Source: Catajapyx aquilonaris
Taxonomy: Eukaryota
Assembly: GCA_000934665.2 (NCBI GenBank)
Contig: JYFJ02000197.1
Span: forward strand, 186,001 to 248,428
Reading direction: 5' to 3'
Length of the DNA: 62,428 nt
Of this stretch, positions 1 to 62,428 are shown piece after piece. The notes beneath the pieces are model-generated. The model saw nothing but the letters and a program-made list of their open reading frames with translations, was not told the origin of the DNA and made no database searches. The position numbers and the translations under genes are program-made. How positions within the stretch are numbered: position 1 is the first letter of the stretch; the number at the start of each line of letters is the position of its first letter.

Positions 1-3000
1 CCAGAATTTGATGTGGAAAGAACGTCTGTGTTTGGGCAAGATGAACCATGCGTGACTCACAGAACTCGTATATATATGAACAACCGGATCGATGTTCAAG
101 AAAGGTTTTTCCTCCAAATACAAAGGTCGGTTCCCTCTGTCTAAACTTGCATCCAGCTACATTATGGTTGCGTATGAGGGTGAGAAACGCTGGCAGCTGC
201 GGTTATAAATTCCAGCAATGAACGAAATGAATGCGTGCTCCGGTTAATACCCTCTCTTCTGATGAGCTGCGAAATTCCCCCAAATTATTCACGCGTATTC
301 CCCAATCTTCCCCCCACACTAATTCTCCCTTTGGCTTTCCTATCTTGTACATATAGGATTGCCGGTAGCCCTCGGGGTTAAAAGGGTGGCAGGCAAAATT
401 AGAGGTGACCCCAAAGGTCGCCCCGGGGGGTGTGAATATTGCCGGAACTAATCCTTCTTAATTCCAGATAGGGGTGACCACACGTCTGATCCTATTCAGG
501 GTGACAACGGGGTGGGGAATAATATTAAGAAAAAAAATCAGATCAACAAATCGGGCTTGATATTGACATTTGCAAATCATTCCTATTCTCCGAAGAATCC
601 ATGCGTTGATGAGATCTTCCACTTCAACATCTCACGCCGCAAACGAAATAAATCTCAATTCTATTTCCCGAGGTAGGAGATAGAAGGGCTAGACTAGAGG
701 GAAAAAAAGCTGCAGTGATCCGAACCAATTCAGCCCAAACCCTGTCAAACTTTCTCTGCTGATCAGGTCGAAAAGCGAAGGCACGTTTCTCTTCTCCAAT
801 AGAGCATCCCTGAACGTTAAAAAAAAGAAAAAGGGTTTTCCGGATTTTCTCGGGCAATCTCGCAGCAGCCGGCCAGCAAGGAGATTGATTGATCTCCAGG
901 GTTCAAAGGCCAAAGCAGACGACTGATCGTCTCCTGTCACGTGCTGATTGGTTGCAACTCGTCCTTTCCTGATTCGTAAAAAAAATCACTTTCCTAGGAT
1001 TGTCCAATACATGTTCACGTTTTTTTTCTCGATTTCACATGAGACATGTTGCGTGTTGGAGTCTCAAAAAATGCGCCAGAATCGATTTTCGTTATCATCT
1101 TTCCCCCATATGGTCTCTTCAGAAAATATCGCAGGGGATGGGGGAGGGATCACGCGCGCTTCATGGGGTGGTAGCAGCATTAGACGTTCATAGTTGCTGA
1201 GTAATTCAGAGGGGTTAAAATCTCCAGAGGAAATAGAGCACACATACTCAATTAACAAAAAGGAAGCAAGTTCATTCGATAGTGTCATAAAATTTTCTGT
1301 GAGAAAAATTACTTCCCATCCGGAATGAACATATTATTTACAATAAATCATCCTTCAGGTACTATTATTCGCAATCATTTCATGATCCTAATTTCAAACA
1401 AATTCATCGGAATGCAACGATATGACCCTATAGTCGACTCCCTTTTAAACACAAACATTTTCCATTCCCGAGTACAAGGCCTAGGAATGGCGTGGTACAG
1501 GACAAAATTAATGATACACCTGAAACCCGCCCCCACAGACCCTGATTGATCCCCATTTTGATGCTAACGAGCCAAATGTCATTGCCGCCAAATGACGAAT
1601 TTGTGGCGTATACCAATGAGCAAGTGGATTAAACCACGGGGGGGCCTTTGAGCTGGTTCTGGGCAGAGACAAAAGGATGTGACTATAGGGTTTAGTTTCC
1701 CCCCCTCCCTCCCCTACCCCTCTCTTTTCTCTTTCTCTCCCATATTCCCCAACCCAACATGACGCCGTCTGCCCGGGCGTGTTTGCGCCACATGCTGCAG
1801 AACCCAACACCCTCTCCATTTATCACCACAGACAGCCCCAGGAATAATAGCCGCACTAACCAAATCCACCCCATAACCCAGCCCACCCAGCACCCACACA
1901 CTCACGCCCACCCACACACCCACTCACCTACCTGATCCCTGTCGACGGTACATATGCAATAATTATGCATCGATTCTGAAATGCACGTATGAAAAAATGG
2001 GTAAGCAAACTATCACCTGTTGTGGAATTCATGGAATTATGGTACTTTTTATCAGCGTCATAACAGGATGTAGAAGTAATGTCAGAGAATTAATTTACTT
2101 TTTATATGGAGATATATGCCGTATGTGCATGACTAGGTGATAATACCTGTATGTTCACTCAAACTAATTACTCTCGGTTGGTTCCGAGTGGGCGATGAAA
2201 ACTGTCAGAGAGTCAGTTGAAAATATAATATTTCGGTGCTTGTTTTTTTTGCGCTTATATGGGCATGGAGCACAACATACTGTCTGGTGAATGCGGATTT
2301 TCGGAATCAATAATGAATTCAATTTAGGATCTTGAAACAATAGGGCTATAGTTGCAGCACTCTCTCATCACAAACACTGCATAGAAAAGCAGATTTTCAT
2401 AAAGATAATGAGTAAAAACCATACATTTGAAACCATGGAATATACCAAATTGGATAGTTGGTGCTGTCCACTTTTTTATTTGAAAAGGGAAAAAGAAAAA
2501 GTCAAAAAAATTGCGTCGATATGCCCAATTAAAAATTTTAAAAGCAAAACAATCAGAATCGCATATATGACATAATTATGAGGGTTTAAATATTGAAACA
2601 TCCTAAGATAATCAGCTTTTCCAGAATTTATTTGCGGGACTGTATAACTGATTTGAAGTAGAAAATTGACTTGACCCCCAGAAAAGAGTCCCGGACTGTC
2701 CAAAAAAGTTTTTGTTACTTAATTTTGACAAATATTTGACTCCGGACGTTCGTATTTCTGGTATTCGTGTTATTTACCATGAAAACTACTCTTGGAGCAG
2801 TGATATTATGATATAAGTAGACCCGAGTAGACAATTAAATTAAATGACATTTCATTACGTCCGAAGAAATAACGTTCAGTTTGATAAAATGTGTCAGTAA
2901 AAATATTGTTACCAACAAACTTTCCTGACAAGCCATAACAGAGGCCCCCCGCACCGATACATTAAGGTGGCAACAAATGTTCATCTTACTTATATTGATT

Positions 3001-6000
3001 ACTTGGTAGCTTCTAATGCACCCACCATTCTTGTGAAATGTCAATATTAATGTCAGCATATCAAAAAAATCTATACAGGAGCGAAACCTTTCAATACACT
3101 GCAAAACGGCATGTCACCCATACGATCATGTGGTAAAAATCATATGAAAACGGGTTTATTTATAGCCTCATTGTGCCTGAAACTATGTGATACAAGTATT
3201 ACCATATTATTCAATTCCCAAACTGTGCAAGTTCCGAATTCCGCTTAGTTAGCCAGATAAGGTTGACATATCATGCTGTCTGCGTGTCAACATTTCTGAC
3301 TGTGTCACTGTTGACTCTCAATTTCAGCCAACAACCTCCTCCTCCTCTCTCGTTTATTTTTTTATACCTCCTCAATTACAATGACTCCTATGTTGGAGAG
3401 CACTGAACGCACTCCGAGACGGGTCATCCATCTCCCCGTTTTAATTTTTGATTAGATCAGTAAATAGCGCCACGTGGCAGAGCAACGCAAACACTCAGCC
3501 GCATTTAAATTCATTCCTCCCAAACTCACTCTCTCAGACCCAAGGCACAGCAGCATTCAGACTGGTCTCTCTCGAATCCCTTTATCGGATTGCAAGCACG
3601 TATATGTGCGTGAGGCCACGCATCCAGCCCCGACGAGTGCGTGCCAGTTCAGTAAAGGCTTCCAGACGTAAGCAGCGATACGACGCTTCAACTCACTTGA
3701 AGGACGTCTCCAACCTGGGGAGTGCCATAGGAGGGGGACTAACACTCACAGGGGTGAAACTATGTAAGGGATGAATTACAGGCTTACACGCTTGTACAAT
3801 TCCCACGTGCTGGTTGGACGCTTGCCTTGATCACTATCTTGGGTTCACGCACTTTGCGTAGTAGTTTGCCCCTGCCTGTTATGTGGCCGGTTGGGAAAAG
3901 GAGGCACATGGGTTATCTAACAGCCAGGATGAAAGCTAAAGCAACATGGAAATTAACAGCATTGCTAATGAACATCAGTACATTAACGAACACAAGTGAA
4001 TACCTACAGGCAATCGCAGCGATTGTTGTGTTCATATAATCTGGCCTATAGTAATATGTGGTATGTTCAGTGGGTGGGGTGGTATCAAGCTGGGGGTATT
4101 GTTGTGAATTTTAATAGTGTTATTAATGATGAGTCGGCTTATGCTTCATTAAATTTTGAGCGCACTTCATGGCTCATTTGAGTTCGATTTGTTGGTGGAA
4201 ATGGGGCGTGAAATATCTAACAATACACAAGTTTGACAGTAATCAATATGTGAGGGGCATGTAGGGCAAAAGACGATAATTTTCAGGGAATACGGTTAAT
4301 TAATTTGGATTAGATGTTGACTTGCTCTATAGTGTAAGCCTGTGACAAAGTATATTTTTAACCACAGCAAGAGACTCGAGTGTTATTAGTGAAAAATTAG
4401 CAAAGTGTGCGAGCATAATAATTATGCTAACAAGTATCTCGTCATGACCGCGATGGATGGAGAGGATGTGATTGGCTTTAGACACTAAACAACAACCTGG
4501 GTTTAATATTCGTTTAGCCGTAAACATTCCGCCATGTTCATGCTAATAGAGTAATATTGGGTTGAATTAAAAGCCAGAGGACAAACGCCGAGAAACACTG
4601 TTGGCCATTCGTTGATTTGTGTCAGTGTTTTTGATTACCAGCTTGTTCGACATGTCAACATTTTATATACCCCCATTTCTAATGTGCAAATGTCGGCAAA
4701 TATTTTCGTACTTTCCCCATGGTCAGAGTGCAAATGTTTTTACCCCCCACCATTAATGCATGGTTGATGAGTCAGCTTGATGGCATTTTAGTGTCGAATG
4801 TTTTCCCGGACTCCACCATCAGAATTATGATCTGTAGCATCAACCTATCATCGCCTCTACTGCAATAAACACTAACACATTCTGTCACGAGTCCGAAAAA
4901 TCGCATTTTCCTGGCTGATGGAAGACTGCCAAAAAGTGCTCCAACTACCCCCCATTTCTCCTCTTATTATGACATAAAAAATGCGGTTCCACCTCACCCA
5001 CCCCCTTCCCCTCCCGAAAAAACGTTGGACGTGAAACTTCACTTTGTCGCTATTAGGCTTTCCCCAAGGCTTCTTGTGTCGCTGCATCCGAGATTGGGTG
5101 GATGGTGTCGGTTGGAAAAACCTGGCCTGAAATGTACTCTCCGGATGAGAGGCGACAGGTACAGAAGACTGCATTAAGAGGGGAAGAACGCCCCGGATCT
5201 AAATCGAATATGTCCATCACGAAAAGGAAACGGAGGGGGGTGGAGGGGATGGAAGGAGAAGACGTATTTGATCGATACAGCCATCGATGCAGGCTTTGGA
5301 GCGAGGAAAGTATATAGGGATGGAAAAAAAAGTCTCAACTTTCACTTCCGTGAGACGCCATCGGAGGAAGTATCCGGATGTAAATGTGCCAGACCGCAGT
5401 CGAGCCTCAGGATGAATTGTCGTGCATTCGGGACTCTCTGCACTGTCCAATTTCGGCGACCTTCATCATTCGTAATCAATAGGTATTGATCTTCATTCTA
5501 CCAGCATCCCTCCGACGTCTTAGCTTCTCCCCTACTTCCTCCTGCAGTGAAAGTTTTCCAAAAGAAATCCTAATGCAAACATTCAACGGTACGCACTGTA
5601 CCATGGTGAAGATCTGGTATCAGTTACGTGGGTTAGGTTTTATTGGGTATTTTTGTTGATCAAGACTGTTTTCTGACAGCGCAATTACAGTGTTATCATG
5701 ATTCTTGAATAATAACTTGCTGTGAATATGACGGAGAATAAATTTCAAGAGTGGTGGTGCCAGGACATCCACGCACTTTAGGTGAGCAAACGCCCTTCCC
5801 TGCATATAACTATAGCAAATCTCCTCCAATGCGAATATGACGGCAATAATCCCGCCAAATCCTGGGCAAGGGAAATTCCCCGCTCGCATGAAAATCCCAA
5901 GATCACCGCTCCCGCGAGTGGAGAAATCCACTGGCATAATATTTGCGTGTGCATAGCGATCTGGAATTAACCCTGCTCTGTTAGAAATGTATACATACGG

Positions 6001-9000
6001 CAGGGGAATTATACATGAAGCACTCCCACAGGCTATTCTTGCATGACGAGTGTATATAGGACAAAAAAAAATGCGATTGGTTTTCTGGCAGATCAGTGTT
6101 GCAGAAAATCATAGTGCAACTAGAATATACCGTAATAACTTTCTGATTTAAAATTGCATGAAATTAATCTGCTATATATGAACAAGTGTGGGGTTATGCC
6201 GAGAATTAAATAATTTTTGTGTACATTTCATATCGTTGTGAACTTGCAGTATGTGCAATAATAAACTGTATTAAAACTTCTGAAAGTGACAAAATAATTT
6301 ACGAGTCGAAAAACCACCACTTCATAAAAAGAAGTCTTACGTGCATAATATGTCAAAGCTGTGACATGGACGCCACTATAACCTAAACTGAATAGCTGCA
6401 GGCTTGAAGAAAGGAACCAGCCAAGTGCACAAAATTTGATTCATGAGTCATCCGCCAACATAATACGAAAGTAGCCTATCTCCCCCTCCCTGCTTTTCTT
6501 TTGGAGGGTCTATAGACCCCGAAGTGATCTAGATGCGGGTGTGACACTCCTTGTGTTTGCTCCCAAGCCGTTATTGAGTGTCGAGCGGGCCTTGATGAGC
6601 AAACAAGGACCCGGGTCCGAGATCACCCCAAGATCACCATGAATGGGGAAACCATGCAGAAGGACATCCAGGCATCGGGAAAGGACATCATATTGGATGC
6701 TAAGGAAATCTGCAATAAGGTGCTGGAATTGGCAATAAAGCAAACATAGCATGACAAAATGAACTATAGTGATTGGGAGACATTTCATGTATGTGTAATG
6801 AACGTACTGGATCTTAGTGAATAGAATCCCATTTGCATTATTGTTGCCTTGCAGAAGCCCATGTGTCGCATCTCTTGACTCCTTTTGTGGTCTGAATTTT
6901 ATAAGAAAACTTGGCAGAGGAGCAAAGAACCACTTATCTGGAGAGCCATCCAGACTGACATTTTCTACGTTTGAATGCTTTCTATTCAACTGCTAAAATG
7001 GACGCAGGAGTAGATTTGGACCATGCTTCAACTTTTTCCTCCACCACCACCACCCTTCTTCCTCAGCATCACCAAGCCGAGCCGCCACAACCCTTCGTCT
7101 CTTTTAAAAAAATCTAGACGCACTTTTATTCCGTCCTTTTTCCAAAGGTTGGCAATCTTTCAGTAGATGCTCACCATTACTCTAAAGCTCTCAAAGCGAC
7201 GAGGAATATCGGGCCAAGAAATGATCTCGGAGAAAGCCTGGCAAAAGCGTGGCATATGCTGGGAAACATTTTGAAATATGTGAGAATCGCGAATTCCGCT
7301 AAGTGTGCAGTATAAATTTTGGAAAAAGGGCAAGCACGACATGCACATGCATGAATAAAAGATGCGACTAGAAAAAACTAGGTTTTGTTGACACAACTTT
7401 TTGGATCATGCTAGATTCCAGGAAGCAGCAAAACCGCTGTGTTAGCAATCCTTGGAATCTAGCTGACTGTGAATGGAATGAAAGGCCATCTACCCAGTAC
7501 ACAGAGTTTGAACAAACTTTGCGTAAGAAACTTTGGCAGGATCTCAACCCCTGTAGGTATGCAACCTACTGCTCGCCATTTGTGAAGAGTCCCACCAAAA
7601 ATAACGGTCTTCTCACCCCCACCACTTGAAACACGGACTGAAAACTAATATTGGAGGAACCTTCCCTAATGTCCCTGGGAGGCTGATAGAATCCGTGTTT
7701 TCGACTCTCACGCAAGGTGATGCCTCCTGAGACATTTTGAGAAGGGAGGTAAAGAAAAGGGGTCCCCTTTTTTCAGCAGAGGTGGAAAACCGTCGAGAGG
7801 CTTTTAAGGGAAGTGTTGAGAGGGTCAGAAAACGGGACAAGCAACCTCCCCAAAGGAGACTTCTAAGAGCTCCTCCGGAACAAAGCGAAAGGAAGGGCTT
7901 TATCCGGTGCCTTCTCCGGATCAACTGGCGCCACTCTCCAGACGACGAGGTCATACTGACCGTAAAGAGCCCAGGAAGTAAAAGACCACCAGCCAGGATG
8001 GAATGGCCGCAATTGGCTTAGGAGAAGAGACTAGAGTAGTAAAAAAGAAGAGTATAGAAAGAGGCAGAGAAGAAATCCGGATCTACAGAAGTTGCCAATC
8101 CTAAACTAGCACCACGGGAGCTGGAAATGTCCAATCTTGTTGATTGCCCAAGATGACGACCGCAATACGTCACCGCAATCCAGCAGTAAACGACGATCAC
8201 GTAATTACAAGGCGTGACAATGCATTCCGGTTGAAAATTTTTGCAATTAGAGAGCAGTTAGTAAATGGCGAGCGGTTAGGAGAGAAAAAATCGACTCGTT
8301 CTTCCTAAAAAGCACCCGTGACACCTAAAAGTGCAAATCCGGAGTGGAAGTCTCCGGAGCGAGTAAAATTACCCAAACTTTTCTCCCCACCTCTCCACCC
8401 CCCTGCCTTCCCTCCCTGGGTTTTCAGCTTCCCTTCCCTTTTCCGGTAACCAAGGCAACAAAACAGCCGTTTCGGTGAGAATTTTTTTCCCCCACCCCTC
8501 CTAGTTCGAGGGAAGCGTTGTCATGGCCACCCGAAATTTTGTTAGCAGCTGGGGGTACTGAGGGTACGTGGGTTTGAGGGGAGGGAAGGAGAGGAGGGGG
8601 GGGGGGGGATTCTGACGGAGGGGATTACAGAGAACAGCGGTGGATGCAAATCGAGGCTGAAAGATGGCGAATGTACCAGAGTGGTTGGGTAAAGGGATGG
8701 AACTGGGGAAAGAGAAAGGAGGTGGGTGGAGTGGGTGGGAGGGAAGTGGGTGAGATATTGCTGAGTTAGAATATGTTCGTATTGAGATCATGTTGGGTTG
8801 AGTTCAAGCACGAACGAGGAGAGATTAATATGGGTGCGCAGCTTCACAGCCAGAATTCTAATTTACGTATTACAGATTTTAAATTATATTAGGCTACTAA
8901 AGAAGAACTCTTCACTGTAAAATATGATTTCTAAATTTTTGTCTGGAAATATTCCCATATTATGTATTTTGTTTATTCTATACTTTGCCCATGTGGAAAC

Positions 9001-12000
9001 AATAAGGCATAGACAACCCTCTATTCCTAGAAGGCACCCCATTCTGGTTGGTAATAAATATGCAGAGGCCATCATATTTTATCCTGATAGGACGTTTATA
9101 TCACTATCTGATGCTATTCATACAAACACAAGCGTTCTAAATATAATAGCGTACCACGTTTTGATTGCATGCTGGAGGGTTGGTCTGAAGCGATATGGCT
9201 TCTGGAACAAGCTTGTATTTTGAAGCCCCTTGCTTGCTCTTGCTCTCCCCCGTAAAGTTTCCACTGTACATAAGAGAGGGGGAGATGCGGGAGGTTACTG
9301 GACCTTCTTTGAAAACCATCGGTGATTTATTATTAAACTTTGGAGAAATGGAAATTTGGCATTTTTTACATTCACATAAGAAAAATATCGCAAAATATGA
9401 CGCATGCTAAGATATCAGAAAATAATACTTGTTTTCTTCAAATGCAAGAATTCTGTGTGAAAAGGGGACGAACAGTGTTGCACTTTACGAACCTTTTGCT
9501 AATTTTAGAGACCATTAGGCGTCCTCATTAGAGTACGCCATAGAGGCGGTTTCCCAGGCTTGTTTCCACACTTCTACCAAGTACACTTAACTTGCAATCC
9601 ACTCCCATTATGGAGTAATATGCTTAGCCCTTTCATTTGATCCTATCCCAAGACACCTTTCGCGACAAGGTCGTCACGAATCGATGACCTTTTTCCCCAA
9701 CCAAGAGAGCAATTAGAGTCAGCGTGAAATTATTCCCAATCAAGCAGCCCTACATCCTTCACCCACAACCCTTGCATTCATAGTAAGTCTAATCACAGGG
9801 TTATTGGAATTCCTGACACGCTAATTTCCTCCTCCCTGGATCTCTTCCACAGCCTGCAGAACCCATATAGCCAGGTGACCAAGTGAAGGGGGGCGCTAGT
9901 TTGCAATAACAATTAGGAGCAGCGGAGTCAGCTCTTCTCGAAAAAAAAACTAATATTGTACCGGTACACGTTTCAGGTACGGGAACTTTCATGCAAACTG
10001 TGCTCCACAAAAGCCCAAACTTAATTTGAGAGACGAAGAGGTCACGCTCCAGCACCCGTGGCCCCCGCAAAAGTACAAAATTCTGCACTCCGGGCTCCGG
10101 AAATGAGCCCGGAGTCAGCTTGTTAGTCGGCACGAATATTACTCCCAGATTGCTTAAGTGCTAATCCTGGCCTGTGCCTGGCAGATTTATCGTGTGGGCA
10201 GAAACACCGACTGCAAACTTCAAATTAACACCCGACCCTGCCCGGATTCATGATTGGCGCTGGGTATGCAGGGGGGCCGCAAAAAAAATGGATTTTCTTG
10301 ATGTGTGTCGAGGACAGTTTCAGCGTGTGATTAAAAATTCCGATTCAAATTTTCCATGCAGTTTTTTTGATGACAAATTCACTGTGGAGTCCTGAGCGTA
10401 ACGTCACATGTGCAGGTATGCGTTGCATATATTCAAGGCGGATGATATGCAAATGTCAGCATGCTAATTGGTGGGAAATGTGCCAGAAATTTAATATATC
10501 TGCTCAAATTCACAACGGCAGAAAATGTAGTTATAGCCAATCTTGTTAATATTGACTTTGTGAATATAGACCTGCTGCTAAAATAAACCAGGTGCACCAG
10601 GTGCTCCTAATATAATCACCATGACAAGTTTCATGCTCGGCTAAAAGCTGTCGCTTAATCTCCATAACTAGAGACGCTAATATGATTTCTGATTAATTCT
10701 TGTTTCTGTTGTTTCCAAACTTCCCAACCTGTAGTACTGTAATGCCCCATAAGGAGCACTAGACCAATTATACAGCCCCCTCAGTGAACATCATGCGCAC
10801 CTAAGCACCTTCTATACTCTATGCAAACCATAATCCCGTTCATGTCAAAGTCACTAATGAACTGCATTGGCCTACAGCCAATAGACAATGAGGAAAGTCC
10901 TCTAATGCTACAAATGCCTAAAGACAAGACGCCAACTCGTATTTAGAGCCGGTATAATGCGGCAACCGCAGCCAATGACTTTCCTCTTAACTACCATTAA
11001 GCAAAAACACAAGACGTCGGAAAAGCTCCCCCCGCTTAGCAAACACTATTAGGCCAAAAATTGGGTAATGGGGAAAGACTATTAGGTTAAACAAGCGCGT
11101 TTGCTGGCCGCCTTTTATCCTAGAGAGAACAATAGCGGAGCCCAGATTTTCTGCTCTGGAGTAATCGGATGCAGGAGATGCAATTGAGCGGCTAACCTGT
11201 TTGCGATTCATAGCTCAAGTGCAGCTACGAATTAAAATTCTCTGCATTTGATGGTTACTGGCCTGTTACTCGTTACGTACAGTGTATTGGAAACCTTACA
11301 GCGCCGCAAATATGCCCTGCATAATAGGACCGCCAAATTATTTCAATTGCAAAAACTAGCCTGGTTAAGCCTCTCAATTTTTAAAAAAACTGGTTGCATG
11401 TGTTTAACCCCCGCTTTTCGGGTGTTTTCACGGCATGCGTTTTTGAATTACATGCGCATGCTAATATTGACGCGCCCATTGTAATTCGAAAATCCTTCCT
11501 GAATATTAAAACCCATGCGCACTGTCCATAACAAAACGGGGGACTCCCTAGAGACCCTAGTTTTGTTTTTACCGATATTTGCGGTAACCCCCAAGCACTT
11601 CAATATTTTAAACCCCTCCAGGACCGTGCATGACAGCTGTATTTATGCTCCTAATCCTACAGTGCATTACTTTAAAAATACTAATAACACGGTCGCACTT
11701 CATTTTCAGTCCATAATCAGCTCAACTATTTATACCACCCCATAAATCCGGTCCAATGTCACCAGTTTTGACACCCGGTAACCGTGAATGACGGCCTTCC
11801 GATCCATCCTGGCACATATGCAATCCTCCACGCATTTCGCACCACAAGAGGGTGGAAATTCCACTGTTTCCATCCGAATGAGCACACGCCCACAGGAAAA
11901 CTGGCCAGATTCCCCTTTGGTTTCACTGCGTTTATGGGCTAATAATCGTCAACCTCTGCACCCCCCAGCGCCTTCCCCCACTCCCATCAGCCCCTTTTCC

Positions 12001-29500: not shown

Positions 29501-30510
29501 GTGTTGGCCAGACTGTTTTAATTGGAAGCTGATTTGACATAATAAGGAGCATTGCCCTGTCAAATATTGGGAACCATGCAAAAGGTGTCGATGAATTTAT
29601 GGAAGGGGGAGGGGGGGGGGAGACAGTCTACTTTTTTTTCCACGTTGAAGTGAGATACAGTGCACCACTCTGTACAGTGATGCTTGTGACAGCTGCCTGC
29701 GCCCGTGTTTTCTAAGTTCCTCAAGTGTTACCATGTCCATTGAATTCTGTCACATCTGAAGATGATAATGGCGGCTCGGAGCAAACCCTTCGGTGCCGGC
29801 CCCACTTTTCTTTTCACCATTTCCCAGCCCCCCATCCGATCAGAAGGCCACGCTCTAATTGTCGCAGCCGCCATTATTGTCCTCGGATGGAGCGTCACGC
29901 CCCACGGTCGCGCTCATTTTCCGCTTCGCTACTCCTATTACTCCTATGTCCCAAAATAAAGGGTAGGTGCAGGGGGGGGGGGGGTGGAAGATGGTAAGGG
30001 GGGATTCAGATTTATATACTCGGGGATCCCCATCAGTCCATCCTTTCTCGCTGGTCGAGCTAGGGATAACTAATTATATGGATAGGGTGGTCCAGCACGA
30101 AAGCAGTGATTTTATATAGGTGAGTTTGGTATACTAGTGAAATAGGTACGACGATCTGTTTTTATATCAACCAGTGGTACTGTAACTGTAAAACTTTAAT
30201 AGTACAGCACTACCACACTGGCAAGTTGCAATCCGGCGGAGTATTCTCAACTGTCGGGGAGGAACTAGGACTCACGTACTTTCGCGGGTTGGGAATGGTC
30301 CATTTGTAACCCCCGAAAGCATGTGCACTCTGGTTTCTCCCCCACAGTTGAGAACACGCAACTTGCCAGTGCACAGTTACTGTGGTCGGGCTAATACATC
30401 TGCTCCATATGATGCGTAGGTTCAAGTTACTTAGTAAACACAACGTTAATTACTGTCTTGTACTTGCAGAATTGCCTTCAAGTGTAGGATAATAATATGC
30501 TATAGTCGAA

Positions 30511-30513
<3 letters not shown>

Positions 30514-30566
<53 letters not shown>
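30514..30566. repeat. (AT)n microsatellite
   Basis: Uninterrupted AT dinucleotide run of about 26 units. Confidence 0.98.
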
Positions 30567-30570
<4 letters not shown>

Positions 30571-33500
30571 TACAGTATTGTACAGCATTTAATTAAAAGC
30601 AACTGTGCTTATTAACTATAGTCACTTAAGCCTTGTTACGTGTAGGCTACGTTATGCGTATAGATGTCAAGTATTTTCTTCTGGGCTTGGTGATACCATT
30701 TTTCTTTCAAGTATTATTTCTAGCAAGAGCAGAAGCCACTTCTAAGCCATATCTTGCCAAATGTGATGGAAATCCATCAGATGAAATATGATATACGCGC
30801 GGACGATAATTAAATGACTAAAGTTTGAGCCTTTGCATATGGCCTCACGCACTTTGCATCAACTTTTTAGATAATTCTCTTTCCGCCTTCATTTCCTCAG
30901 GAAGCCAACAAGAATCATGCACGAACTTCTCCCTGCCACCGATGGAACAAACGAGAAAACAAAGACTGAAAGTCTCTCTCTGTCTCCTCCGCCATCCTTT
31001 TTCCCCCGCATGTTACCACGAGCCACCAGATGGAGCGCCATGTTGCAAGTCAAATAAGGACCATTCATGTGGAAATGACGACCCATCGATTACAAATTAG
31101 ATTTTAGCGTATGCTGAAAATTTATCACTTAGGCGTGCTATTTAATTTTTGGAAAATTCTAGCTGAGCCTGCTGCATACTTTATGGTTGTGTTGACATTT
31201 TTTTAGTAAACGCTCGTTAGGGTTAGCTAATTAATTCGAATATCCGAACGGAGGTGGTAGTTTTTTTTGTGTGTGTCGGAAGCCAAGTGTCTAATTCCGG
31301 ACGGGATCTATAATTTGGCCGTCACTGAGCAACCTAATTTCCTTCTGCCCAATTCATTAAAACCTGTTTGGCTTCGCACCACAGTTGAAAGAAATGGCAT
31401 GAAATTGCAGCCCGTTGAATTTTTTTTATCAGTCCAAAGGGAAATAATCATAACGAGCGCAAGCGCCATCTGTGATATTGCCCTTTTCCTGTGATCACTA
31501 ATAGCTGTAATTACTTCAAACGTGATCTTTTGACCACTCCGACTTCCTCCTGGCTATACTGAATAAATAAAAACAAAAAAATAAAAAATAACATAATTCG
31601 GGTGTTGAAGAGTATATCGACAAATTATGAGTTTGCTTTTTTCCTTTTCCGCCGAGTTAAAGGCCAATCAATTGTGAAGTACCCTATTCAGACCTGCTGC
31701 AACAATTAGAATAATGGTCATTGTGAAAATATTGCCGTGTAAACTAGGTTGTAAATCCTGTGAATGGCGGAGGGACAACGGCGCTTTTTATGGCGGAGGA
31801 TCGGAGGGCCTCTACTTCTGAATAGCATCCAGAACAATTTATTTGCTATCTTCAGATTTGATATGGGAATCAAATGAAATAACCCAGTGTCATGTCTAGG
31901 CTCATGAAATATAACTCAGGTCCAATCGGGTCCAATCATCCTGCGCGTTGATGAATTGGCATTGATGATAATAATAGGGATACTTCTGATGTTGATTAAT
32001 TTAATTGCGTATTAAAATATTGCTAGTTAATTGGCATTGTAATTACGGTTTATATATTCTTGTTAAGTAATACATTGAATTAATATTGTTGGTATTTACT
32101 AAATAATAAATAATACCTGTATCAGTTCCAAATATTTACACAATGTGACTTTGTTGTTTACTGTATAAAATGTATGCTATGCTAACAGGATTGGTCACAT
32201 AATAAATTATTGCAGTCATGCTGAACAATAAATCGTAGCGACTAGAATCAATAAGCCATCAAATTATTTTGGTCTTCCCTTCAGAAGGTTTGAAACTTGA
32301 AACTCTGCCAGGTCGTGGCCCCTGCCTTTATACAGTACAGCTCCTCTATTCGTAATATTTTTGCCCCAAAGGAACAGCTGCAATAAAGTTTCTCAGGATG
32401 TGCATGTGCACATGCAATCAGAGAATAACAATTTAACGAATTAAATTTTCACATCCTTGTACTTCTTTGGGCTACATATCCTGGGGCTGGCAAAGGTAAA
32501 TGTACGAGTTATTTAGAAACACCGTGTTGTAGACATTGTATACAGTAGTCAGTAGGCCTTCTTATGTTCATTTTGCCAGGAAAATAAAACTCGCAATCCT
32601 ATGTGCCTATACAAATAAAACAAAAAAGCATACATATTTTAAACGAGTCAACCAAATATGGGAAATATATCACTTATATTTTGGCCATAATAGTGATTCA
32701 TTTTTTGCAATAAATTCACAAAGTTTTGATAACAATGTTTTCCCTTAGCACAGTCATGATCTTATGCAAGCCTACAACTGCTGTACAAAATCAATGGTGC
32801 CTGTTCCATCAGTGAGGTTAGACAGATTTATCAGTGTATTGATTTTGGTTTTCAATGCATCGTAATTATTATTAAATTATATAATTATTTCATTTTTATT
32901 AATTTAATCGAGTATGTCGGGCGAGATTTATATCCATTTTGAGTATACAATGAGCGGAGGGGATTATTACCTGGCATATTGTCCTATACGTATTGCGTAT
33001 AGGTTTATTGGGATGGTACACATAGGCACTAATTCACGTTGTACACGTTTACCGAGCGTAACCATTACCCTGTTAATTAATTGCCTGGTGGCACAAAACG
33101 GAAGACATGCCGCATGTTTACAATACGTGACCATCACTTACATTAGGCGTTACAAATTTACTAGTGCTCATAAATAGGCTAACCTCACCGTCAATCTTTT
33201 GTTGGGCAACCCCATTCATGCCTTTGTTATTATCTCGCATGAATTTGACACTAATCCGGACGGCTGAAAAGCATCCTTTCACACAATAATAGCCTTGACG
33301 CTCATTTTGGAAGAATAAAGGGTCGCCGCAACACAAAAATGGTCGGACGCATAAATATTTCCAAATCTGGTTGTTCTAGAATCCAGTCATCCGGGAATTG
33401 AAACCTGGAATAATAGAACTGCAAAACAGGCTCCGAGGATATGATCCGTGCAAATCGTAATGATCCGTTTTATTACTATGCGATTCAATTTGCCCATAAG

Positions 33501-36230: not shown

Positions 36231-36303
36231 GGGGGCGTAGCTCACATGGTAGAGCGCTCGCTTAGCATGCGAGAGGTACCGGGATCGATACCCGGCGCCT
36301 CCA
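36231..36303 (+). tRNA. tRNA-Ala(AGC)
   Basis: 73-nt cloverleaf. Acceptor stem GGGGGCG/CGCCTCC carries the G3:U70 alanine identity pair and discriminator A73. D stem GCTC/GAGC; anticodon stem CTCGC/GCGAG with AGC at 36264-36266; T stem CCGGG/CCCGG with the ATCGATA loop typical of metazoan tRNA-Ala(AGC). Confidence 0.97.
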
Positions 36304-36309
36304 CTCTCA

Positions 36310-50102: not shown

Positions 50103-50225
50103 ATCTCCCTTCTGATTTGGCCTTCTGGCATTTGAGAGAGAGACCAGCAGTCGCCCCCCAGTGCCCACTCCAGGTGGTTGGTTCTTCCTGCTGCATGTAG
50201 TCATGGTGTGAACTGGGTGTGCAAG

Positions 50226-51968
50226 ATGGGCTCCTTACCGCTGGTGCCGCTGGTGACACTGCTGGTGGCGTGGCTGCCATGCTGGTGTGTCGCCAACAAG
50301 GGCAGCCGCTGCGAAGAGATCAACATCCCGATGTGCCGAGGAATAGGGTACAACCTGACCTCGATGCCGAACCAGTTCAACCACGACACGCAGGAGGAGG
50401 CAGGGCTGGAGGTGCACCAGTTCTGGCCCCTGGTCGAGATCCAGTGCTCCTCCGACCTCAAGTTCTTCTTGTGCTCCATGTACTCCCCGATCTGCATGGA
50501 GGACTACCACCAGCCGTTGCCGGCGTGTCGCAGCGTGTGCGAGCGCGCCAAAGCTGGTTGTGCCCCCCTGATGCGGCAGTACGGGTTCGCCTGGCCCGAG
50601 CGGATGAACTGCGACAAGCTGCCCCTGTTCGGTGACCCACACCATCTGTGCATGGACGCCAAGAACGGGTCCGGCCCTGAGGAGCCGGCGACCCCCTTCC
50701 CCAACGTGCGTCCTCCCTCCACGACGCGCCCTCGCACTGGCCAACAGGGGCCCAGGGCCAAGAACCACCCTTGCCTGTCCAGCCGAGAAGGGTGCCGCGA
50801 TATGAGGGACAAGCAGAGCTGCGAGTGCCGGTGCAACGGACCATTGATCAACATCACGCAGGACAGCCCCTGGTTCAACCGCAGCGTGACCGTCTACAAT
50901 CAGGACAACTGCGGTCTGCCTTGCGGCGGAACCTTCTTCGAGCCTGAAGAGAAGGAGTTTGCGCAGTGGTGGATCACTCTGTGGTCCAGCCTGTGCTGCA
51001 TCTCCACCCTGATGACTCTGACCACGTTCCTGATCGACATGGAGCGGTTCAAGTACCCCGAGAGGCCCATAGTGTTCCTGTCGGCCTGCTACTTCTTAGT
51101 GAGCGTGGGGTACTTGATCCGGGTGATCCTGGGTCCGGAGGCCATAGCCTGCGACGGAGGCATGATCCGGTACAACTACACGGGCCCCACCTTCTGCACA
51201 GCCGTCTTCCTCTTGATCTACTTCTTCGGCATGGCCAGCTCCATATGGTGGGTGATCCTGGCCCTCACCTGGTTCCTGGCAGCCGGGCTCAAGTGGGGCA
51301 ACGAAGCCATCGCCAGCTACTCCCAGTACTTCCACCTGGCCGCCTGGCTAATACCGACGGTCAAAGCCACGGCCGTCCTCCTGATGAGCTCCGTGGACGG
51401 CGACCCTGTGGCAGGCGTGTGCTACGTGGGCAACCAGAACGTGGACAACCTCCGCGGGTTCGTTCTGGCCCCCCTGGTGGTATACCTCCTTCTGGGCACC
51501 ACCTTCCTTCTGGCCGGATTCGTCAGCCTGTTCCGCATCCGCAATGTGATCAAGCAGCAGGGACGCACCAAGGCAGACAAGCTGGAGAAGCTGATGATCC
51601 GCATCGGCATCTTCAGCGTCCTGTACACGGTACCGGCGACCATAGTGATCGCGTGCTATTTCTACGAGTCGCAGCTACACGACGTGTGGATGAAGCCCCT
51701 GGTGTGCCACTGCGAGGAGAAGCAGAAGCCAGTCTACTCAATCCTCATGCTGAAGTACTTCATGGCTCTGGCCGTGGGCATAACCTCCGGTGTGTGGATA
51801 TGGTCGGGCAAGACTCTCGAGTCGTGGAAGCGCTTCTACCAGAGACTGACCGGGAAGCCCACCTACCAGCCCCAGCACAGGACGCTCAAGCAGGTGAACT
51901 ACCCGGCCACGAGTGTGCCTAGTCACGTGGGAAGCGCTCCCAAGCAGCCGCCCCTCAGTCACGTCTGA
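50226..51968 (+). CDS. fz2: Frizzled-2 (Fz5/8 subfamily) Wnt receptor, 580 aa, intronless CDS
   Basis: ATG at 50226 starts a signal peptide (MGSLPLVPLVTLLVAWLPCWCVA); the ORF-track start at 50178 is a TTG. The protein has a Frizzled CRD (CEEINIPMCRGIGYNLTSMPNQFNHDTQEEAGLEVHQFWPLV...), seven TM segments with RFKYPERPIVFLS, WFLAAGLKWGNEAI and KLEKLMIRIGIFSVLYTVP, the Dishevelled-binding KTxxxW motif (KTLESW) and a C-terminal PDZ ligand LSHV, as in Fz5 and Drosophila Fz2. Confidence 0.97.
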   Translation: MGSLPLVPLVTLLVAWLPCWCVANKGSRCEEINIPMCRGIGYNLTSMPNQFNHDTQEEAGLEVHQFWPLVEIQCSSDLKFFLCSMYSPICMEDYHQPLPACRSVCERAKAGCAPLMRQYGFAWPERMNCDKLPLFGDPHHLCMDAKNGSGPEEPATPFPNVRPPSTTRPRTGQQGPRAKNHPCLSSREGCRDMRDKQSCECRCNGPLINITQDSPWFNRSVTVYNQDNCGLPCGGTFFEPEEKEFAQWWITLWSSLCCISTLMTLTTFLIDMERFKYPERPIVFLSACYFLVSVGYLIRVILGPEAIACDGGMIRYNYTGPTFCTAVFLLIYFFGMASSIWWVILALTWFLAAGLKWGNEAIASYSQYFHLAAWLIPTVKATAVLLMSSVDGDPVAGVCYVGNQNVDNLRGFVLAPLVVYLLLGTTFLLAGFVSLFRIRNVIKQQGRTKADKLEKLMIRIGIFSVLYTVPATIVIACYFYESQLHDVWMKPLVCHCEEKQKPVYSILMLKYFMALAVGITSGVWIWSGKTLESWKRFYQRLTGKPTYQPQHRTLKQVNYPATSVPSHVGSAPKQPPLSHV

Positions 51969-52118
51969 CAGAGTGAGGACCCCCAGTTGCAAAGCGTGCC
52001 CACTCCCCTCCTAGGGGCAGCAGGCTCAGGGGCCACCCCGGGGCATGGGAAAGGGATGGGCAGCGCCTTTAGCAACGTGGAGGGTACACCCACTCTTAAT
52101 AACTATGGCCAGTTCTAG
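51969..52118 (+). other. fz2: Candidate stop-codon readthrough extension of fz2 (49 aa) overlapping a long stem-loop
   Basis: Stop context is TGA-CAG. The frame stays open to TAG at 52116-52118 (QSEDPQLQSVPTPLLGAAGSGATPGHGKGMGSAFSNVEGTPTLNNYGQF). Positions 51970-52013 pair with 52046-52096. Confidence 0.6.
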
Positions 52119-59480: not shown

Positions 59481-59672
59481 ATGAAGAAAATGGCAACACA
59501 TGCAACAGAGCCAGGTGCTTATTGGGAAAAATCGAAATCCTGAATACCGATTTTATGACTACCTTGTGGTTTACAGTGCTGTAATGCACATATTGATATT
59601 GTTATTGTAAAGTCATGCGTCACTGTTGATGTTAAAGTGTATTGATTATTCTGGTTGAGTATGGTAACGTGG

Positions 59673-60815
59673 TGTAACCAGGGGTCTTTCGTTGTTTGTT
59701 TTACTTTCCTTGGTTATCGTTGCTCAGACCCCTGTGTTGCCCCACGGTACTGTAAACGAACCGAGGTGTAAATAAAGCTATCGGTGCCTCGGTAAGGGCA
59801 GTCAGTGACTAGCAGTCCAGGAGGAAGGTTCTCTGAAAAGGGAGCTCTCCCCTGCGACTAGTGGGCTCACTGATCCACTTGCCACTCCGTAGTGAAAAAT
59901 AACATTCTTGTGTTTTATTTCATACAGAGTACGGCATAAATAGTAAACTGACCAGGGGTCATAGTTGGGTAGGCGCCACCCAAGTATACTCCCGGCAGGA
60001 GGAACGGATACCTGGGCCAGCAGGCTCGCGCCGCCTGGGTCATCCAATCCGACTATTTATTCCGCTTAGGCAATCCCATACAACCTCCGTTAATAATACT
60101 TACAAGCATCATACTTGGGCCAGCAGGCCGCGCCGCCTGAGTATACGTAAGTAAGGTAAAGGGAATGATGTCTGGGCCAGCAGGCTAGCGCCGCCCGGGT
60201 TATCGGACCCAATTATTTCGGAAGTGCTTCCTCCTCACGATTTAAGAATCGCCGGGAGCCGCCCGGACCAGGGCGGAGTAGGTGCCTATCAGTCAACACC
60301 TTGTGTACCTACTCCTGTTACCTTTGTGATCGCCGGAATGTAGAACCTGACGTCACAGTGCTGGAAATATTCGACGCGACAATTGCAGGACAAAACCTGG
60401 ACAAAACTCTCAATGTGTATGTTGCAGTCAATCTCGTCAAGTTGATGTCTACCCGACTGTATCTGTGTGATCGTTTTGACACATTTGAGCAGCAAGCACT
60501 TGTTGGCATTGACCCTTCATGGCCCCTGGTGTTGCCTCTATTGGTCACTGCCAGCCCATGGACACTTCTATCCCAGCGCAATAGAAAAGGCCGATCCGTT
60601 ATTCCTTCCCGCAGCGGCGCTAGTAAAACAATGGAATCTCGCTGTGCGTGTCGTTCATTCGCCATAACAACTATAGCGACGATAGCGACCCTCCTCCCGA
60701 TTACTAGGTTTATCAGCGACCCCCCTCCCGATTACTACCGATCACGGTCTTAGCCGCTACCGATAGCGTATACCAAGATGGCCGCAATATGGAGATGTTC
60801 ACGATCCAGGTCACA
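59673..60815. mobile_element. Solo-LTR-like element (1143 bp)
   Basis: TG...CA ends form imperfect inverted termini (TGTAACCAGG vs reverse complement TGTGACCTGG, 8/10). Flanks acgtgg/tcatgg match 4/6, a possible decayed TSD. AATAAA occurs on both strands (59771 +, 59914-59919 -). Internal tandem duplications are present (23-bp unit at 60684-60706 and 60715-60737). No coding capacity or PBS seen. Confidence 0.5.
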
Positions 60816-61672
60816 TCATGGCCACCTCCAGTCAGCGCCACGGCGGGAATGAGTAACGGAACGCAAAATGGCGGCGAGTTTCCCGACCTCTCCTTCTAAG
60901 ACCGTGGTCACTGCACTGCTGAGTCTGACTGCTTGACTGGACTGGACTGTCTGCCTGCCCTGTACTCTCCTTTTATCCCCAGGTATGCAAGGCAGAACAG
61001 GACCCTGCTGTTCCAGAAAGTTGTCACTGGGAATGGTTCCTTCCTGCCTCCATAGTCTTTTCAGCTCTACGTTGCTCTTGGTTTCTCCTACTTTTATCCT
61101 TTGAGCTGTACAATACAGCTCCATGCTCTTAGAACTCCAGTGATTCATGAAAGTGTCCCAAATTCATGGACGATTTAGGCACCATATGTGTCTTACGGTT
61201 ATCAAATTTTGGCACTATCCTTCGGAATTTTTTTCGCTAAGCACTACGAGGGTACACTTGGGTACAGTACTAATATTCAATATGGCGAATGACATAAGCT
61301 ATGTTCAATGAATTAATAATTAATGTATTTAGTGATTTAGTTGTGAATTCATTGCCAATCACTTGGTGAAACAGCAACTTCCAGTGAAAGGAAAAAATGC
61401 AAGCTGGTAACATTAAGAATTAATTTATCAGAATTTTTAAAATCATTGCAAGCAGAGCAGTCCAATGTGGGAAAAGGGTGCACCTGGATGACAATGTTCA
61501 ATGATTCCATATATGTCGCCTGAAATTCATTGCAACTATACAGGGACCTAAAAATGTTTTCCTTTCCACCCAATTTTTGGAGTTAATAATTACCAGTATC
61601 ACTGCCATAAAACCTGCCCAATTTGTGGCTTGACAAGCATGGCATCACTCCGTGCATGACATTACTGGTACA

Positions 61673-62400
61673 CAGTGTTGGGCAGGATCTAGATCAAATG
61701 ATCTAGATCCCAAACGCGTGATCTATGATCTGATCTAGGTACTTTTAAAACAGAGTATCTGTACTTGTATCTAGATACTTTTTTCATGGGATCTATGATC
61801 TAAAGATCTGAATTTTCCAGATCATGTCTTTTTTTCCACATATATGTTCCTGATGCTCAATTCATCTTCAAAAGATTATGTCAAGTCTAGGTAAAAAAGG
61901 GGACCGAAGATGGCAAGTCAATGTATTATGTCAAAATTTGAAAGTTTATATTATTTTTTAAATCACTGAATGTATTTAAAAAAAGAACTGTGTAGGCCTG
62001 GCCTATTAATAGGATAAGTTTGTGTTTTTCAATTATACAAGTTCTCGATGTAATTCATACTTGTCAAAATATAGACTAATTTATTACTAATATGTATGGG
62101 ACATGCTGGGAATTTTATGATTTATTGACTAGGCCTGTATGTTTTAACTATTTTTGTGTGTGTGAAATTATTCTGTGTACTTATTATAATATTTTCAATT
62201 GCAAGGTCATTATTTTTGACACATTCATCAATGGATCTTTTCTCAGTGTTTTCTCTTGCACTTTAGCAATATGCCCCTGGGGCGGGTGGCAGACAATATT
62301 CAAATTCCCTGTATCCCTCTTCACTTGAACTAAACTGCTAATTGACGTAAATCACTTTAGGTTGTGTGATCTGAAATCTGATCTAGATCATTACCTAGAT
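61673..62400 (+). mobile_element. hAT-like non-autonomous element with GATCT/GTATCT subterminal repeats; right end interrupted
   Basis: Starts CAGTGTTGGGCAGGATCTAGATC. Dense GATCT(A/G) and GTATCT repeats at 61685-61825 and again at 62368-62400 surround an AT-rich core. Confidence 0.6.
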
Positions 62401-62428
62401 CAGTGCCGTATCCAGGGGGGGGGGGGGG
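62401..62428 (+). mobile_element. Left terminus of a second hAT-like MITE nested in the previous element, truncated by the window edge
   Basis: CAGTGCCGTATCCAGGGGGGG resembles the common CAGTGGCGTAGCCAGGGGG-type terminus. It is preceded by ACCTAGAT, similar to the NTCTAGAN target preference of some hAT elements. Confidence 0.5.

Follow-up and report, generated by a model that had tools for sequence, protein, structure and literature searches.

We found that the analyzed stretch of Catajapyx aquilonaris DNA (62,428 nt, referred to here as the window) contains an array of related hairpin motifs within a mobile-element insertion, a copy of a non-coding interspersed repeat (Table 1). In the three complete copies, H1 to H3, the core of the motif is conserved over its flanks, the changes within the stems preserve pairing, and the wobble pairs favor the + strand. 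We tentatively favor a reading in which the + strand would be transcribed and would act, single-stranded, as a protein-binding module.

Table 1. Features of the repeat copy and its hairpin array, in window coordinates
Feature	Position	Strand	Description
Non-coding interspersed repeat copy	59582..60354		773 bp, flanked by an exact 9-bp direct repeat
Probable 9-bp target-site duplication ACAGTGCTG, left copy	59573..59581		Boundary-pair search
Probable 9-bp target-site duplication ACAGTGCTG, right copy	60355..60363		Boundary-pair search
Long imperfect hairpin upstream of the array, same element	59657..59761	+	Weak Rfam match; also in the whole-element fold
7-bp hairpin ACCGAGG/CCTCGGT with AAUAAA in the loop	59760..59793	+	Forms partly in the whole-element fold
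H0, shortened motif copy	59961..59987	+	6-bp plus 3-bp stem, 7-nt loop AGGCGCC, without CAGCA
H1	60006..60045	+	4-bp plus 8-bp stem, C bulge; unpaired CAGCA at 60018-60022; GGC/GCC tip; loop TCGC
H2 inner hairpin	60111..60144	+	10-bp stem; CAGCA at 60121-60125; GGC/GCC tip, loop one base shorter
H3	60167..60204	+	H1-type architecture; CAGCA at 60178-60182; loop TAGC; three to four G-U pairs

A repeated motif with a conserved core and paired stems

The four hairpin sequences and their coordinates in the initial annotation were all exact on re-reading, and our alignment confirmed its claim that CAGCA and the GGC..GCC tip are invariant across H1-H3. The three copies share one fold: a lower stem leads to the GGC/GCC tip, CAGCA stays unpaired between them on the 5' side only, and the tip ends in a loop of 3-4 nt that reads UCGC, CGC or UAGC at the RNA level and varies in length by one base between copies. 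The core of H1 occupies 60013-60025 and 60028-60040. Exact occurrences of the 12-mer GGGCCAGCAGGC in the window are limited to 60014, 60117 and 60174, while four other matches carry one or two mismatches and are scattered. MAFFT aligns H0 with this motif, and the 8-nt gap it opens in H0 takes out the CAGCA bulge together with the 5' arm of the tip. A covariance model built on H1-H3 found no further copy in the window; its best other matches were 52003-52051 (E 0.084) and H0 itself, with a score of only 11.5 bits (E 0.52). No array was detected in the hairpin region by Tandem Repeats Finder. The three cores are listed by a repeat finder, together with an in-register pair (60000-60058 versus 60160-60218, 78% identical) at a spacing of 160.

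Two parts of the proposed architecture fared less well. The outer stem drawn for H2 (TACTTAC/GTAAGTA, 60097-60103/60147-60153) has no counterpart in H1 or H3, is changed in other genomic copies without a listed change in the partner, and is probably accidental. The array had also been described as a duplicated unit of 150-160 bp. The alignment around H1 and H3 spans only 47-59 nt, which does not bear out a unit of that length, while five derived states in paired columns are common to H0 and H2 and fit an old duplication of a two-hairpin unit.

We compared the core of the motif with its surroundings by anchoring H1-H3 on one another. Each pair of copies differs at one or two positions of the 26-nt core versus 28-42 of the 50 flanking positions (25 nt on each side), with a Fisher p of at most 1e-5 for all three pairs. 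Since the core is far better kept than its flanks, some constraint or homogenization acts on the core. The 26 core bases are near-invariant with the stem bases included, which structure alone does not require.

The stems had been proposed to differ by compensatory or wobble-preserving changes. Standard pairs fill 43 of the 45 cells in H1-H3, two pairs being altered in both partners and three in one partner; when H0 is included, 52 of 57 cells are paired and three pairs (four cells) are changed on both sides. One of the double changes, C-G to U-A, lies in H2 at alignment columns 10/36. When the 3' partner is slid by 1-3 columns, pairing falls to 27-53%. A column-shuffle control with H0 included reached the observed values in 3 of 500 shuffles for pairing and 17 of 500 for covariation. 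The same control on H1-H3 reached them in 37 of 500 shuffles for the percentage paired and 114 of 500 for covariation, i.e., not significant.

We also simulated the divergence of the copies, holding H1 fixed and placing the observed numbers of substitutions randomly in paired columns along the tree ((H0,H2),H1,H3). With H0, the probability of pairing at least as high as observed was 0.013, that of at least as many double changes was 0.014, and that of both was 0.002. Without H0, the probability for pairing was 0.006 at the observed transition share of 0.55 and 0.059 at a share of 0.8, the probability for double changes was 0.023-0.046 depending on the transition share, and the probability for both measures was 0.002 (share 0.55) or 0.014 (share 0.8). 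The claim of compensatory or wobble-preserving changes is modestly supported by the pairing counts and the simulations; the column shuffles for H1-H3 are weak in this respect. Overall, conserved pairing on the + strand is supported at about the 1% level, as measured on four related copies at one locus from which the structure itself was derived. Both arms of the stem hold CCTGGG-like words that pair with themselves through G-U, so a direct repeat could account for some of the stem and for both ancestral wobble pairs. Furthermore, two transitions at both sides of a Watson-Crick pair always yield another Watson-Crick pair, which makes double changes easy to come by in a copy as diverged as H0.

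The G-U pairs favor the + strand, with 8 G-U cells on the + strand versus 1 on the - strand. Read on the - strand, the same pairs fill 36 of 45 cells, or 46 of 57 with H0; the - strand has fewer pairs because the 8 cells that are G-U on the + strand are lost and only 1 would be G-U on the - strand.

Single hairpins are modestly more stable than their dinucleotide shuffles, against which the z-scores of the individual hairpins were measured. For H1, minimum-energy folding of the + strand returns the fold that had been proposed (-22.2 kcal/mol, z -2.1; 5 of 200 shuffles reach this energy), and H0 also takes its drawn form, in which a 7-nt loop holds GGCGCC (-8.7 kcal/mol, z -1.6). The fold of H3 has the proposed architecture with one difference of register in the lower stem (-20.7 kcal/mol, z -0.8), while that of H2 has the proposed lower stem and another tip (-17.6 kcal/mol, z -1.7). 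The drawn + strand folds were thus recovered for H1, H0, the architecture of H3 and the lower stem of H2, and were not recovered for the tip of H2 and the one register of H3. On the - strand, H1 and H2 give poorer alternatives and H3 does not give this hairpin. Folded as one piece, the array has no extra stability over shuffles (z -0.96 on the + strand and +0.16 on the - strand). Given the modest z-scores of the hairpins and an array no better than shuffles, thermodynamics alone do not make the case.

The element that carries the array

The limits of the insertion were sought as direct repeats over 101 x 171 = 17,271 boundary pairs, for which we calculate that approximately 0.07 exact 9-bp matches would be expected by chance. 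The exact 9-bp repeat ACAGTGCTG lies on both sides, and we therefore place the insertion between its two copies. A neighboring high-copy element at 60552-60905 has its own flanking exact 9-bp repeat, GGTCACTGC, and its limits match loose contig ends at 60551/60552 and 60906-60909; a process that duplicates 9 bp therefore acts in this genome. We consider the 9-bp duplication the probable reading of the insertion ends. A solo LTR with limits at 59580-60357, TGT...ACA ends and a 4-bp duplication GTGC is possible, less economical and somewhat unlikely. With that split the ends read TGTAATG...CGTCACA and match by eye at 5 of 7 positions in inverted order, but these bases are equally explained as part of the 9-bp duplication, and the solo LTR needs five further flanking bases to match by chance (approximately 1 in 1000 by our arithmetic). 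The initial annotation had called the surroundings of the array an LTR-like element, which is not established given the 9-bp duplication and the window's lack of a partner LTR or gag/pol.

The genomic setting of the array is that of an animal and is arthropod-like. An uninterrupted open reading frame at 50136-51968 holds Fz and Frizzled domains; its product is closest to human Frizzled-5 among solved structures, and, among named relatives, the best are frizzled-2/5 proteins of arthropods, to which it is about 60-70% identical. The element lies about 8 kb downstream of this Frizzled gene. Among the window's 92 open reading frames of at least 90 aa, the domain scan covered 84 (the other 8 overlap the Frizzled frame) and found no gag, pol or any transposon domain in them. 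The window holds no second copy of the element, as judged by direct repeats of at least 60 nt.

Contigs from three DNA runs of one sample, aligned at a likeness of at least 80%, provide a view of the copies elsewhere. Their summed depth is 300-550 across 59629-60195 versus 26-38 for the flanks, which corresponds to roughly 10-20 copy-equivalents of the repeat, summed depth not being a copy number. Depth cannot rank the parts of the element; it declines toward the right end, the opposite of the trend that 5' truncation would leave in a + strand retrotranscript. The alignment of the single-copy contig runs out at 59607, and those of other copies begin at 59580 or 59596. No contig covers 60358-60519. 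One contig joint connects 59622 to 60336 with 20 other letters between them at a depth of 21-30, which is not the clean empty site expected for a 9-bp duplication.

Variants in these other copies bear on the stems in H2. Four were seen there: 60129 C>T, which lies in the loop, 60142 T>C, which would break an A-U pair, and 60147 G>A and 60148 T>C, both of which fall in the outer stem drawn for H2. No partner change to 60142, 60147 or 60148 appears among the 40 of 132 variants listed, and none of these 40 lies in H0, H1 or H3. Contigs with 12 differences over 59870-60000 exist, so further variants cover that stretch. The listed variants neither confirm nor refute the inner stems.

Local hairpins are unusually frequent across the entire element, on either strand. 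The element folds at z -4.8 on the + strand and -4.4 on the - strand; in a separate run its z-score was -4.5 versus +1.2 to -3.3 for 13 of 14 other 773-nt segments of the window, the exception being 30000-30772 (z -11.2). G-U pairs comprise 38 of 261 pairs in the + strand fold and 25 of 234 in the - strand fold. The long imperfect hairpin upstream of the array matches a plant miRNA precursor model of Rfam at 21 bits against a threshold of 80 (E 0.25), a match that we read as a sign of a long stem only. The adjoining 7-bp hairpin has its 3' arm altered at four positions in one diverged genomic copy, with no partner changes among the variants listed.

We asked which kind of element could carry such an array. 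LINE-driven insertions have target duplications of variable length, with which 9 bp is compatible, and Foldback transposons make a 9-bp target-site duplication. Mutator-type DNA transposons also make duplications of 9 bp, according to PMC2774946. The 9-bp duplication that marks Mutator and Foldback insertions is present here as ACAGTGCTG; the terminal inverted repeats that mark them were not found when the first 150 nt of the element were compared with the reverse complement of its last 150 nt, the best local score of 16 lying within the range of shuffles (mean 14.7, maximum 21). Several hallmarks of SINEs were likewise sought. ARAGORN finds no tRNA-like structure in the element, Rfam at E <= 10 gives no tRNA, 5S or 7SL match in 59500-61000, and there is no A-tail at either element end. 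The - strand ends in an A/T-rich, ACAATA-like stretch that is only suggestive. Across the whole window, Rfam 15 at gathering thresholds reports only a tRNA at 36231-36303, and at E <= 10 it reports three chance-level matches in 59500-61000, none of them on the array. Resemblances seen by eye were dropped: a tRNA primer-binding site at H0 and likenesses to 5S rRNA helix IV and to the initiator-tRNA anticodon arm found no support from Rfam or ARAGORN. As it stands, the array fits no named family.

Readings of the array

We reason that in the preferred reading the + strand of the element would be single-stranded, most likely as a transcript, and would fold into three near-identical stem-loops of approximately 40 nt and the shortened fourth copy H0. 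In each stem-loop, a lower stem of 10-12 bp with G-U pairs would be joined to a 3-bp GGC/GCC helix, with CAGCA left unpaired between them on the 5' side, and the terminal loop of 3-4 nt would have its first positions free. The repeats may form a multivalent platform that binds a protein from an autonomous partner element, with a Gag/ORF1-type nucleic-acid-binding protein or a reverse transcriptase as the candidate binder. Such a protein would read the CAGCA bulge between two helices and thereby mark the RNA for mobilization or packaging. The one-sided interruption of 5 nt and the variable loop length would be harmless in a hairpin and awkward for a fixed double-stranded site. The hairpin richness of the whole element also counts in favor of this reading. 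A bolder form of it is unlikely, in which the array would be a structured RNA module not described before, belonging to an arthropod mobile element, and a protein of the autonomous partner would read the CAGCA bulges multivalently for packaging or reverse transcription, with the GGCGCC loop of H0 adding RNA-RNA pairing. Several observations count against the preferred reading, besides the modest z-scores and the cautions on the pairing statistics: there are four copies only, at one locus, and the structure was derived from them; once composition is allowed for, the two strands of the element differ little in how structured they are; the core is kept even in stem bases; 60142 T>C would break a pair of H2 in other copies with no listed partner change; depth declines toward the right end; and a cut-and-paste DNA transposon would make a role as RNA less natural.

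The main rival, which we regard as rather doubtful, is a cluster of double-stranded DNA binding sites, with the 26-bp core as the putative target of a sequence-specific protein, e.g., an insulator protein or transcription factor with multiple zinc fingers, or the element's own transposase. As in the gypsy insulator, occupancy would be increased by having three to four copies within 250 bp. A core that is near-invariant in its stem bases as well, set between randomized flanks, fits sequence read-out over a long footprint, yet the variable lower-stem bases stay complementary beyond chance, which a double-stranded site does not need. The core CCAGCAGG plus GCGC may resemble the first half of the CTCF motif, in which two of the conserved G positions would be C. 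Read on the - strand, the motifs would sit upstream of a TATTTAT/AATAAA pair, which would count for DNA sites. The palindrome, however, is interrupted on one side only, the spacing within the core of H2 is off by one base, and all wobble positions favor one strand. The 9-bp duplication also speaks for DNA sites, being the length made by Mutator-type DNA transposons (PMC2774946), and the gypsy insulator is a precedent for clustered binding sites in an arthropod mobile element, as far as the relevant part of PMC2374998 describes it.

Pairing and + strand bias apply also to hairpins in single-stranded DNA, in which G-T wobbles are tolerated. Such hairpins could be extruded on the + strand during transposition or replication and be recognized by a transposase or nuclease, and a DNA transposon is compatible with the 9-bp duplication. 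The hairpins, however, lie 380-630 nt from the left end of the element and 145-390 nt from the right end, whereas such signals are normally terminal, and the element has no terminal inverted repeats. Internal single-strand hairpins are not known to be used by any eukaryotic family that makes a 9-bp duplication, and this reading is very improbable. It is also quite unlikely that the array is a functionless remnant of a short palindromic segment duplicated within a decaying copy of a transposon, where covariation would appear by chance. The number of copies (four only), the weak shuffle control for H1-H3 and the modest z-scores leave room for such a remnant, CCTGGG-type words that pair with themselves through G-U would give a hairpin for free, and other palindrome-rich segments exist in the window, e.g., the one at 30000-30772. 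Equal neutral decay, however, does not produce the contrast between core and flanks, so that very recent copying or conversion restricted to the core would be needed, and the simulated probability for pairing plus double changes is 0.002-0.014.

If the preferred reading of a + strand RNA signal is true, the array would give an arthropod mobile element a compact recognition module, a repeated bulge plus two helices, that is simple to test, and it would help to match non-autonomous repeats to the element that mobilizes them. If the motifs are DNA binding sites instead, each of the roughly 10-20 copies could bring a small regulatory or insulator block to new places. In either reading, this is a family-level detail of transposon biology that opens no new question.

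Comparison with known systems

A full-text search of the literature for the 12-mer found no description of the motif, its matches being on unrelated mammalian topics by title. Matches to a 22-base pattern in viral contigs comprised 33 loci with one match each and no array, and we took them as chance in G+C-rich phage DNA. A 24-base pattern matched three metagenome contigs over a 28-nt motif only; one of these has a G+C content of 59-71% and bacterial-type open reading frames, and we attribute these matches to chance as well.

Several systems nonetheless resemble the array in part. The leaders of retroviruses and LTR retrotransposons contain hairpins such as the MLV psi GACG hairpin pair and the HIV-1 DIS kissing loop. 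Like these, the array groups short stem-loops at close range on what would be the genomic strand, their unpaired bases are conserved, and H0 has a 6-nt palindrome in its loop. Unlike them, it is accompanied by no LTR pair, primer-binding site or gag/pol in the window; the loops read UCGC, CGC and UAGC rather than GACG, and the conserved part is a 5-nt bulge rather than the loop. Retroviral-type integration produces duplications of 4-6 bp in the relevant passages of PMC10045372, in contrast to the 9 bp found here. A retroviral kissing-loop hairpin sits in the 5' leader, and its palindromic loop pairs two RNA copies with each other. The analogy of H0 to a kissing loop would rest only on its GGCGCC palindrome, which fills 6 of the 7 loop bases. 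Since H0 aligns as the H1-H3 motif shortened by the 8-nt gap in the MAFFT alignment, this palindrome may be a by-product.

Stem-loops at the 3' end of LINEs and SINEs are recognized by the reverse transcriptase of a partner element, and they are single and lie at the 3' terminus. The array shares with them conserved hairpins in a non-coding, non-autonomous repeat, but it is internal and repeated, and the element has no A-tail and no tRNA-, 5S- or 7SL-like head. Mutator and Foldback elements share with the element here the 9-bp target-site duplication, and this element is palindrome-rich too; it differs from them in having no terminal inverted repeats, and the window contains no transposase.

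The Su(Hw) site in the insulator of gypsy, a Drosophila retrotransposon, is not known to be palindromic, in contrast to the interrupted palindrome with kept pairing found here. What the two have in common is a short motif in the non-coding DNA of an arthropod mobile element, repeated within a few hundred bases. Su(Hw) binds the gypsy insulator, whose function required four copies of the site in the transgene assay described in the relevant part of PMC2374998. Taken by analogy, the array may be a cis-acting repeat inside a mobile element, comparable to the leader hairpins of retroelements or to clusters of binding sites.

The neighbouring high-copy element and its target duplications

Downstream of the 773-bp mobile-element copy that bears the hairpin array lies a separate high-copy element with an exact 9-bp duplication, GGTCACTGC, on either side. 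Summed depth of contigs from three DNA runs of one sample ranged from approximately 800 to 9,850 over the bins of this element, with most bins between 3,700 and 9,850, compared with approximately 30 for single-copy DNA. In these contigs both of its ends were joined to many differing flanks. The element contains a subterminal inverted repeat approximately 41-72 nt in from each end (score 35; shuffle maximum 24). A stretch of 23 nt is also repeated directly within it, at 60684/60715, and its two AAGATGGCCGC / AAAATGGCGGCG boxes resemble YY1/Pho sites.

We found that CAGTG is common to the 9-bp target duplications of the two elements at 59573-59581 and 60543-60551, at the same offset and in one of them in the opposite orientation (CACTG). 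This may reflect a target preference common to the mobiliser of both elements. Between the elements, positions 60358-60519 have zero contig cover from the three DNA runs while there is cover on both sides, and filtering, polymorphism or the dropping of short contigs could account for this gap.

Features of the window discussed in the text
Feature	Position	Strand	Description
Near-contiguous inverted repeat	30241-30357		58-nt arms, 76% complementary, 1 nt between
tRNA-Ala (AGC) gene	36231-36304	+	found by both ARAGORN and Rfam
Frizzled ORF	50136-51968	+	610 codons, uninterrupted; Fz and Frizzled domains
AAUAAA hairpin	59760-59793	+	AAUAAA in loop of 7-bp hairpin
TCAGT word	59802-59806	+	approximately 30 nt downstream of AAUAAA
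High-copy element	60552-60905		354 bp; flanks 60543-60551 and 60906-60914
GATCTAGATC-type clusters	61680-61800 and 62366-62400		palindromic words

Other transposon-like segments and genes

The near-contiguous inverted repeat could represent either a transposon of the foldback or miniature type or the precursor of a long hairpin RNA; the 773-nt segment from 30000 has a fold z (fold energy relative to shuffled sequence) of -11.2. Another small transposon probably accounts for the GATCTAGATC-type clusters, which contain a 14-nt inverted pair (61686-61699 versus 62376-62389), and fold z is -3.3 for the segment starting at 61600. A run of approximately 13 G closes the window (62416-62428); it could have arisen artefactually, through assembly or at a contig end. 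The nearest relatives of the Frizzled ORF, which is held within a 60% G+C island, are Frizzled-5/8 and arthropod frizzled-2.

A candidate transcript start upstream of the array

The AAUAAA hairpin and the TCAGT word could together serve as a TATA-like box and start site for a + strand transcript taking in the array. The TCAGT word resembles an insect initiator.
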